Of a stretch of 64,000 bases of DNA, positions 11,623 to 12,522 are shown in pieces (the first letter of the stretch is position 1; each line of letters begins with the position of its first letter). The notes beneath the pieces are model-generated. The model was not told the DNA's origin and did no database searches. It saw nothing but the letters and a program-made list of their open reading frames with translations. Made by a program: the position numbers and the translations under genes. The DNA lies in NCBI GenBank assembly GCA_021773295.1, contig JAJFKI010000025.1, positions 1,965-65,964 of the forward strand. The letters are read 5' to 3'. The DNA comes from Gammaproteobacteria bacterium. Lineage in GTDB: Bacteria; Pseudomonadota; Gammaproteobacteria; UBA1113.

Positions 11623-12522
11623 ATGGCTGGTGAGAGTAAAGAAGTTTGCAGCAATGAGGAATTGATTTGGCGTTTTAAAGAAAAACTTAATCAGCATAGG
11701 GATGAAGTGATGATTGCTACAATGCTTAAGAGATTTACGAATTATGTAAGAATACCCGATGATGATGAAAAAAAATTAGAGAAATCACTTGAAAAATTAA
11801 AGAAATCTTTTAAGGAAGTAGACAGGCATAAAGGAAAAGCATTTCTCAACGGCATATTCAACGATCTTCCAAGGACGCAAAGAGTGCATTATGGAATACT
11901 GTATCAAGATGAACTATCTGGAAAAGCGGGTGACATAAACACTGATCCTGCTAGCAAATTTAGCGAAAACCTTGCCACCCTCTGTGGGAAAAAAGATGTT
12001 TCATTGAGCGCTATTACTGAGCTACTGAAAGAACATGGCCAGCACTTAACAGATGGTGAGGATCTTGAACATATAGAAGATGCTATCTTAAACTACGGTG
12101 AAAATAATCTATGTGATTTAAAAGCTGTTATAGAGCTGGTGAATCAAATACGGCAGTTGGACACAGAAAATGGTGGTATTTACTTATCTGAATTGATGAG
12201 CACTTTTAATATGTGGTGCGGATGGTGCAAAGAAAAGGATCCTAACAGTGCACAGACTCTCACACACTATCTTAAATCGGTCAATGATTATATTGCCTAT
12301 GTTGCAATTTCAGTGCTTGAGTCTAGCGACATTAGCTCAGAAGATAGCGCCAGTCGTCAAACTGCTGCATCATCATCACCGCCGTCATTGTCAACTAATG
12401 TCCCTGTTGCTGGTTCATCAAATGCAGTACGCCTGGCTCCTCAAAGACTGTTTGCTAACACGAGCAATCCCACAACTGATGGGCAATTAGATGAGCTTCA
12501 GTACTGTGCCAGATGGAGATAG
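11623..12522 (+). CDS. hypothetical effector-like protein; paralog of the ankyrin protein N-terminus, with a Ser-rich C-terminal module
   Basis: 299 aa with a conserved N-terminal domain. The C-terminus reads ...AASSSPPSLSTNVPVAGSSNAVRLAPQRLFANTSN. Confidence 0.7.
   Translation: MAGESKEVCSNEELIWRFKEKLNQHRDEVMIATMLKRFTNYVRIPDDDEKKLEKSLEKLKKSFKEVDRHKGKAFLNGIFNDLPRTQRVHYGILYQDELSGKAGDINTDPASKFSENLATLCGKKDVSLSAITELLKEHGQHLTDGEDLEHIEDAILNYGENNLCDLKAVIELVNQIRQLDTENGGIYLSELMSTFNMWCGWCKEKDPNSAQTLTHYLKSVNDYIAYVAISVLESSDISSEDSASRQTAASSSPPSLSTNVPVAGSSNAVRLAPQRLFANTSNPTTDGQLDELQYCARWR

Follow-up and report, generated by a model that had tools for sequence, protein, structure and literature searches.

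An alanine-then-serine run recurs in predicted linkers and tails of effector-like proteins encoded in a 64-kb gammaproteobacterial chromosomal stretch

Serine-rich spacers and C-terminal signals in comparable systems

Low-complexity linkers and tails of fast-evolving accessory proteins are already known. Ser-rich flexible spacers of gammaproteobacterial accessory proteins are represented by the polyserine linkers of secreted enzymes from Saccharophagus, Teredinibacter and Microbulbifer, which are long, nearly pure in serine and part of Sec-exported carbohydrate-active enzymes with N-terminal signal peptides. Tandem effector paralogues with domain gain or loss are found among the ankyrin-repeat proteins of intracellular bacteria. 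Secreted effectors are seldom marked by a short sequence word, useful as such words are; type IV signals are mostly too fuzzy to be detected without machine learning. A signal of the Dot/Icm type sits in the extreme C-terminus, approximately in the last 20–35 residues and at most in the last 100 or so. Features described for Dot/Icm substrates are small residues at positions −11 to −5, a hydrophobic residue at −3 or, more broadly, at −3/−4, and an acidic E-block in the region of −10 to −17, and one translocated protein of Legionella pneumophila, Lpg2844, consists of more than one third serine (PMC3052360).

Here, we describe a new instance of such linkers and tails in seven proteins, designated P503, P399, P299, P768, P757, P799 and P317, which are encoded in a 64 kb chromosomal stretch (the window) of a gammaproteobacterium with approximately 42% G+C and which carry a run of alanines followed by serines, or a variant of it. 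Like the polyserine linkers, these runs would be Ser-rich flexible spacers of gammaproteobacterial accessory proteins, and in P399 the tract lies between two domains predicted by a low-confidence AlphaFold2 model, as polyserine interdomain linkers do, whereas it is terminal in the other carriers. Unlike polyserine linkers, the runs are short (5–10 residues), led by alanine and mostly located near the C-terminus, and the N-termini of the carriers are acidic (MAGENKED, MAAEDGD) with no signal peptide visible by inspection.

With Dot/Icm substrates the carriers have in common that they are proteins with ankyrin repeats or without homologues whose tails are polar and abound in small residues; in four of them the last 22 residues include the run. 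Unlike Dot/Icm signals, which are defined by composition and found only at the extreme C-terminus, the carriers contain a fixed Ala-then-Ser word that is found 47–129 aa from the end in three of them. Moreover, in contrast to the hosts of Dot/Icm systems, the organism shows no Dot/Icm genes in the window and is not demonstrably a member of the Legionellales, its ffh being 63% identical to that of a Legionellaceae MAG among the GTDB representatives. Two carriers, P399 and P299, are similar to tandem effector paralogues in that they have a common N-terminal domain and linker, with ankyrin repeats in one of them; they differ from the known families of this kind in that the N-terminal domain matches no known family and, as far as a low-confidence model can tell, no known fold.

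Gene content of the window and the P399/P299 pair

The analysis covered 64 kb of one genome. Housekeeping genes of the window comprise purL, trmD, rimM, ffh, a CorC/CNNM transporter gene, lepA, lepB, rnc, era, recO and pdxJ; genes for a BarA/LetS-like kinase, a type IVb pilus cluster, queA, tgt, secDF and clpB are also present. The carriers are long ORFs scattered among the housekeeping genes (Table 1), and all of them are without family assignment except P399, whose C-terminal ankyrin repeats, recognised by Pfam, are the only domain identified in the seven proteins. Genes of a Dot/Icm or another effector-translocating system were not found within the 64-kb window, which contains the type IVb pilus cluster only.

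In a scan of GTDB representatives, the best match of ffh was 77% identical and belonged to an unclassified gammaproteobacterial MAG. In this nearest relative found, a gene for a group II intron reverse transcriptase occupies the gap between ffh and corC in place of the consecutive genes P399, P299 and P768, and this trio was therefore regarded as a lineage-specific insertion. Homologues were searched for four of the seven carriers (using a P399/P299 profile, P299, P768 and P799), while P503, P757 and P317 were compared with family libraries only. A search with P299 against 5.8 billion proteins returned the query itself as the sole match, and the two-sequence profile of P399 and P299 had no credible relative among 1.84 billion representatives. 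One additional match to a 1032-aa tandem-repeat protein, which aligned on a KLKESLKEID-like helix, was judged spurious. For P768 no homologues were detected, and P799 matched no protein but itself and no Pfam family. Judged by these searches, P399, P299, P768 and P799 are lineage-specific, and P503, P757 and P317 are without any family match. The ankyrin repeats, the missing homologues and the fact that the nearest relative does not have the trio make the carriers look like accessory proteins directed at a host.

Table 1. Positions of the carrier genes, their Ala/Ser tracts and promoter-like sites in the window
Feature	Position	Strand	Remarks
Promoter-like site upstream of P399	10266–10295	+	TTGGCA, 18 nt, TG-TATATT; consensus match only
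P399 gene	10331–11485	+	384 aa from GTG 10331, the form contained in the protein library; 399-aa ORF
P399 module	11075–11140	+	AAASSSS 11075–11095, ASSS 11111–11122, QTLFAR 11123–11140
Promoter-like sites matching that of P399	11559–11588 (P299), 12661–12690 (P768)		repeat family D5; alignment, scan
P299 gene	11623–12522	+	tandem paralogue of P399 without ankyrin domain
P299 module	12361–12465	+	TAASSS 12361–12378 through QRLFANTS 12442–12465; covers the interval highlighted by the first-pass annotation
P768 gene	12744–15044	+	ATG 12744 or GTG 12738; third gene of the tandem trio
P768 tail	14904–14993	+	SSSSVAASQSHFANSSSS 14904–14957, then AASSSS twice 14958–14993, 16–22 aa before stop
P799 gene	25304–27703	+	last ~120 aa form a low-complexity tail
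P799 tail features	27350–27448	+	AAASSSS 27350–27370; weaker AAASSYGDMQQAFNASKS 27395–27448
P503 run AAAASSSSSS	5890–5919	+	gene 4444–5955, no Pfam match; 11 aa before stop; preceded by ATLFS
P757 variant TASSS	21158–21172	−	gene 21125–23398, no Pfam match; followed by DDDDEMLVLR and stop
P317 AASSSS	44126–44143	−	gene 44081–45034, no Pfam/NCBIfam match; 14 aa before stop

Comparison of P399 with P299 by BLASTP revealed 33% identity over 253 aa (E = 1e-28). A global alignment was collinear from the start M-A-G-E through the Ser/Ala stretch to the last residues of P299, and AASSS, ST, V-A, SS, Q, L-F-A and E-L were invariant. Beyond the aligned part, P399 runs on into its ankyrin repeats (Pfam Ank_2, Ank and Ank_4 at residues 313–385 of the 399-aa ORF) and P299 ends. 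By this alignment the two proteins, whose genes lie 137 nt apart with corresponding promoter-like sites upstream, are tandem paralogues over their whole shared length.

This result changes the view of a segment which the first-pass annotation had described as a C-proximal, Ser-rich module, ending in (L/H/A)F(A)N-(T/S)S, of three otherwise unrelated proteins, with a related segment in P799. All four peptides quoted for it were present about where they had been placed, including SASVASSSQTLFARDK at 11099–11146 in the P399 gene and NVPVAGSSNAVRLAPQRLFANTSN at 12397–12468 in the P299 gene. The carriers of the two best-aligned copies, P399 and P299, are however not unrelated; P768 and P799 are, the segment aside, non-homologous to this pair. 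Alignability of the segment at the DNA level was confirmed for the P399 and P299 genes, although at a modest 75% identity over 40 nt, and is explained by common descent because the genes are paralogues and collinear through the module. The corresponding similarity between the P299 and P768 genes (73% over 30 nt) equals that of many chance pairs from the same repeat list. A C-proximal location applies to P299 and P768, where the segment lies 17 and 28 aa from the C-terminus, but not to P799 and P399 (84 and 112 aa); the distance of 84–112 aa in two of four proteins and the ankyrin domain which follows the segment in P399 argue against a strictly C-terminal signal of the Dot/Icm type. The related word assigned to P799 (AFNAS/FNAS) is unsupported and not distinctive, as PurL contains AFNTS. 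Rfam and tRNA scans gave no match in or near the module.

Gene conversion, which had been offered as another source of the segment, left no identity spike: the codon-aligned nucleotide identity of P399 and P299 was 0.62–0.70 in the module, 0.65–0.67 in other conserved windows and 0.56 overall. At the amino acid level, the linkers of the two proteins are 60% identical, compared to 38% overall.

In the predicted layout of P399, a Ser/Ala-rich linker connects an all-helical N-terminal domain with the C-terminal ankyrin repeats. An AlphaFold2 model built on the two-sequence alignment (mean pLDDT 58, indicative only) showed residues 6–238 as all-helical and residues 239–276 as coil with a pLDDT of about 28, the values for residues 241–270 being 27–29. 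In this low-confidence model, the coil spans the Ser/Ala run and QTLFA and is flanked by helix 216–238 and by helix 277–289, from where helices continue into the ankyrin region. The N-terminal domain of P399 and P299 matched no known family, and a Foldseek search with the low-confidence P399 model retrieved generic helical bundles only (best E 0.03, TM ≤ 0.24). Upstream of each gene of the trio, a promoter-like site of the common form TTGnnA, 18-nt spacer and TG-extended −10 element was recognised by consensus match only.

Enrichment and character of the Ala-then-Ser run

A run of two to four alanines followed by three to six serines (A{2,}S{3,}) occurs in P503, P399, P299, P768 (twice), P799 and P317, that is in 6 of the 47 ORFs of the window, and P757 contains the variant TASSS. 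The same pattern was found in only 2 of 1127 background ORFs with 413,000 residues from 80 other gammaproteobacterial loci (Fisher p = 8e-8). In an unbiased motif test, an AASSSS-like word was the sole word significantly shared (p ≤ 0.003), and when the window was translated in all six frames, 8 of the 10 occurrences fell in the frames that code for the seven proteins. Each run was improbable even when only the C-terminal 130 residues of the protein in question were shuffled (P = 0.001–0.019). The clearest example is P317 (P = 0.001), whose tail is otherwise poor in Ser and Ala (10% and 8%, respectively) and yet contains GGAASSSSEA. The earlier remark that effector-like proteins of this stretch possess poly-Ser/Ala tracts was thus borne out by the counts; as to the recurrent element in their tails, the AASSS(S) run stands, while the (L/H/A)F(A)N-(T/S)S word does not.

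Alanine precedes serine throughout, the reverse order being found only inside the P768 repeat. The Ser codons of the runs are mixtures of TCN and AGY which differ between the genes, so that no two genes share one codon string, and TRF detected no tandem repeat in any tract at a score of at least 30. The mixed codons and the lack of repeats indicate that the run is kept at the amino acid level and did not arise by slippage or DNA copying; the different TCN/AGY mixtures likewise speak against gene conversion.

The run is located 10–22 aa from the C-terminus in P503, P768, P757 and P317, and 47, 110 and 129 aa from it in P299, P799 and P399, respectively. Compared with the other 39 proteins of the window, the seven carriers have a more polar C-terminal stretch of 30 residues (0.71 versus 0.57, p = 0.0005), which is also richer in small residues (p = 0.016). 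No difference between the two groups was observed for an acidic block (p = 0.13) or for hydrophobic residues at −3/−4 (p = 0.52), and P757 alone has both. For P768, AlphaFold2 prediction from the single sequence gave a poor model with a pLDDT of 41 overall, in which the last 50 residues are coil at a pLDDT of about 30. The disorder predicted for linkers and tails should be read with caution, as the structure models are of low confidence (mean pLDDT 58 for P399 and 41 for P768).

Origin and function of the recurrent elements

We assign a probability of roughly 0.55 to the explanation that, besides the common descent of P399 and P299, the Ala-Ser run is a lineage-specific motif of disordered linkers and tails in accessory, effector-like proteins. 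The module shared by P399 and P299 would result from a duplication, with homology reaching from the start codon through Q-x-L-F-A; one copy would go on into the ankyrin repeats where the other stops. For the P768 gene, either chance or a local rearrangement that brought in a related 3′ segment would account for the match, the similarity being marginal. The run of two to four Ala and three to six Ser would be kept at the amino acid level in polar, probably disordered C-terminal regions, where its most likely role would be that of a flexible spacer or hinge. It would keep the helical N-terminal domain of P399 apart from the ankyrin repeats and, in P503, P768, P757 and P317, stand before a short exposed tail. 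By analogy, exposed tails of this sort may be regions which are read by secretion machines or host enzymes.

The similarity of P768 to the pair was evaluated by several approaches. Outside the tail, P768 has no significant similarity to P399 or P299. Smith–Waterman comparison of the tails with shuffled sequences gave p = 0.0175 for P399–P768, p = 0.18 for P299–P768 and p = 0.07 for P768–P799. A gapless multi-sequence motif test for FANTSN gave p = 0.11, and an information-weighted gapless test of APQRLFAN against ASQSHFAN p = 0.027 (k = 8) and 0.06 (k = 12), uncorrected for 20 tests. An HMM of the module built from P399 and P299 recovered P768 as the top non-self match among 1382 ORFs (E = 0.074, heavy composition bias), but sub-profiles without the Ser/Ala tract did not find it. 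With hhalign, the P399/P299 pair matched P768 or P799 at probabilities of 3–6% (2.8% for P768), the best match to P768 being located directly upstream of the Ser/Ala tract in both. The pattern [SP]Q..FA[NR] is present in all three genes of the trio and absent from 438,000 aa of background ORFs, and FAN[TS]S was counted two times in the window but never in the background; both patterns were set after seeing the data. P299 and P768 also share six identical residues with identical codons (GTT, GCT, CAA, TTT, GCT and AAC), for which codon usage gives a post hoc chance of about 0.004. Altogether, the match in P768 (SQSHFANSS) appears only marginally above composition-matched chance.

It is possible, at somewhat less than even odds, that V-A-x-S-Q-x-x-F-A-N of P768 is homologous to the segment of P399 and P299 and spread by local 3′-end duplication or illegitimate recombination within the trio. 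The adjacent position of the three genes with their similar promoter-like sites, the patterns confined to the window, the shared codons, the rank in the HMM search and the position of the hhalign match directly 5′ of the tract in both proteins argue for this origin. However, the shuffle-based and motif p values (0.0175, 0.18, 0.11 and 0.027–0.06) are all marginal and none survives correction for multiple testing, the hhalign probability is low, P768 is missed once the Ser/Ala tract is removed, and the patterns were not only chosen post hoc but applied to genes already selected by DNA similarity. A homologous P768 segment would bear only on where the module came from and is compatible with the linker and tail explanation. 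An artefact at the DNA level, by trinucleotide slippage, recent gene conversion or remnants of REP-like palindromes, is by comparison highly improbable. Tracts of (GCN)n and (TCN)n can indeed expand by slippage, and a 28-nt palindrome, which reads GRFANRPY in one frame, is located just downstream of P299 and P768. This reading is largely refuted by the absence of TRF repeats in the tracts, the mixed AGY and TCN codons with codon strings that differ between all genes, and the lack of any rise in identity within the module. As for the palindrome, it agrees with the module DNA at 12–13 of 28 positions, which is no better than background, and was rejected as the origin of the FAN word.

Some properties of the run are not expected for a pure spacer. 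The fixed order of Ala then Ser, which a spacer does not need, and the discrete AASSSS in the Ser/Ala-poor tail of P317 hint at specific recognition. That P399 and P299 are better conserved in the linker than in most other parts is also unusual for a spacer, with the caveat that alignment of Ser on Ser is easily obtained. Nevertheless, we consider it unlikely that AASSS(S), with Ala first, is a recognition element selected at the protein level which tags the accessory or effector repertoire as part of a secretion signal or as a modification or cleavage site. Similarly doubtful is the more specific proposal that the run, perhaps with the next residues, is part of a C-terminal translocation signal for a Dot/Icm-like type IVB or another system encoded elsewhere. 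Its location 10–22 aa from the C-terminus makes export plausible by analogy for four of the seven carriers, whose group is enriched in small (p = 0.016) and polar (p = 0.0005) tail residues, in line with the small residues at −11 to −5 and the diverse or Ser-rich signals, e.g. of Lpg2844, reported for Dot/Icm substrates (PMC3052360). P757 even ends in ...TASSSDDDDEMLVLR, where hydrophobic residues at −4 and −3 come after an acidic block; moreover, the carriers bear ankyrin repeats or lack homologues, as effectors often do, and a discrete, ordered run kept at the protein level favours recognition over spacing. On the other hand, the 64-kb window encodes no translocation system save the type IVb pilus, in P299, P799 and P399 the run is much farther inside (47–129 aa from the end), neither hydrophobic residues at −3/−4 (p = 0.52) nor acidic-block counts (p = 0.13) set the carriers apart, and known Dot/Icm signals are compositional with no fixed word. 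Even less probable is a use of the run inside a eukaryotic cell as a host-directed short linear motif, namely a phosphorylation or O-glycosylation cluster or a protease cleavage site (Ala|Ser). Such a function would agree with a discrete, ordered and protein-level conserved word in predicted disordered regions, and, as it happens, FANTS, FANSS and FNAS each contain an N-x-S/T sequon close to an aromatic residue. It would, however, presuppose arrival in host cells; no match to a defined eukaryotic motif was obtained, and the sequon differs even between the paralogues, as P399 has R in place of N.

The consequences of these explanations differ. If the run were a true signal or processing site, the effectors of this lineage would be directly enumerable and a handle on the secretion machinery would be available; if it were a recognition tag, a simple sequence word would predict the exported proteins of the organism. 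If, instead, only a favoured linker composition is concerned, the observations are ordinary and reflect tandem duplication and low-complexity tails in fast-evolving proteins which lack homologues. In either case, carriers should be tested for paralogy first when a module seems to be shared.

With regard to P768 itself, the D-x-D-x-T-like element DFDKT and a weak match to DUF2608 raised the idea of a HAD phosphatase, presumably Lem4-like. The DUF2608 match, the sole Pfam match of this protein, is below threshold (E = 0.0033, 17.4 bits versus a cutoff of 22.6), a sequence search of the PDB was empty and the AlphaFold2 model was unusable; the assignment is no more than a tentative lead.

As a minor observation, the core of the REP-like palindrome is widespread across unrelated taxa, which makes it useless as a probe for this lineage.

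A palindrome downstream of orphan genes

A perfect palindrome of 28 nt, GTAGGGGCGGTTCGCGAACCGCCCCTAC, is present in four copies, which lie directly downstream of the orphan genes P299 and P768 and of era and the orphan gene P757 and are often followed by a T-run. The copies downstream of P768 form an inverted pair, 121 nt apart. Its ends, GTAG...CTAC, are typical of REP/RAYT elements. Shuffled versions of the window contained no match to the palindrome. A metagenome scan with its 19-nt core as query matched at least 120 loci, on contigs with a G+C content from 25% to 72%. Among the matches listed, neither conserved flanks around the core nor close relatives of the window's proteins on the same contigs were found. 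Therefore, the palindrome is distributed across very diverse bacteria.

Positions of the features discussed, in window coordinates
Feature	Position	Strand	Remark
Promoter-like sites	10266-10295, 11559-11588, 12661-12690		P399, P299, P768; one per gene
M-A-(A/G)-E starts	10331, 11623, 12744-12770, 25304-25330	+	P399, P299, P768, P799
Palindrome copies	12552-12580, 15119-15147, 15240-15268, 21084-21112
P768	12738-15044	+	DFDKT motif
P799	25304-27703	+	DFDDCT motif
BarA/LetS-like hybrid sensor kinase	27731-30493	-	adjoins pilus cluster
Type IVb pilus cluster	30656-40457
Low-G+C patch	42000-46800		G+C 0.35
Winged-helix HTH protein	42374-42889		adjoins truncated HipA protein
Truncated HipA N-terminal-domain protein	42979-43530	-
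tRNA-Leu(CAA)	45120-45206	-

Upstream regions and proteins of the orphan genes

The promoter-like sites of P399, P299 and P768, the tandem orphan trio between ffh and corC, are very alike: each combines TTGnnA with a TG-extended -10 element across an 18-nt spacer in which TGG and TTTTTG occur. This likeness suggests that the three genes could be co-regulated or could share a duplicated 5′ region. The trio's proteins and the orphan protein P799 also start alike (MAGENKED, MAGESKEV, MAAEDGDS, MAAEEDNES), the common M-A-(A/G)-E leading into acidic residues and a helix; this may be due to chance, or reflect a common N-terminal feature or a 5′ duplication.

The motifs DFDKT in P768, with IDDQ further on, and DFDDCT in P799, with YDDRED further on, are hints, at the level of sequence, of putative diverged HAD-like phosphatase cores in both proteins. 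P768 gave a sub-threshold match to DUF2608 (E 0.0033), a PDB sequence search on the HAD-like reading gave no match, and the structure models were too poor to check these cores.

Accessory genes and neighbouring clusters

In the nearest relative found, MAG JAGVJK010000036.1, the ffh-corC gap is occupied by a group II intron-type reverse transcriptase (8051-9427 of that locus), whereas the window carries the orphan trio. Two orphans of this MAG, a 279-aa membrane protein and a 261-aa LRR-like protein, are unrelated to those of the window and occupy other positions at which the window carries orphan genes. The presence of different genes at the same positions thus suggests that accessory genes turn over recurrently at fixed chromosomal slots.

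The low-G+C patch may be an island next to a tRNA gene. Besides the winged-helix HTH protein, the truncated HipA N-terminal-domain protein and tRNA-Leu(CAA), it carries the orphan P317 and an AAA_14/DUF4143 ATPase. The type IVb pilus cluster looks complete, with a GspE/PilB-like ATPase, a PilC/GspF-like platform protein, several PilS-type prepilins, a PilN-family secretin and a PilP homologue.
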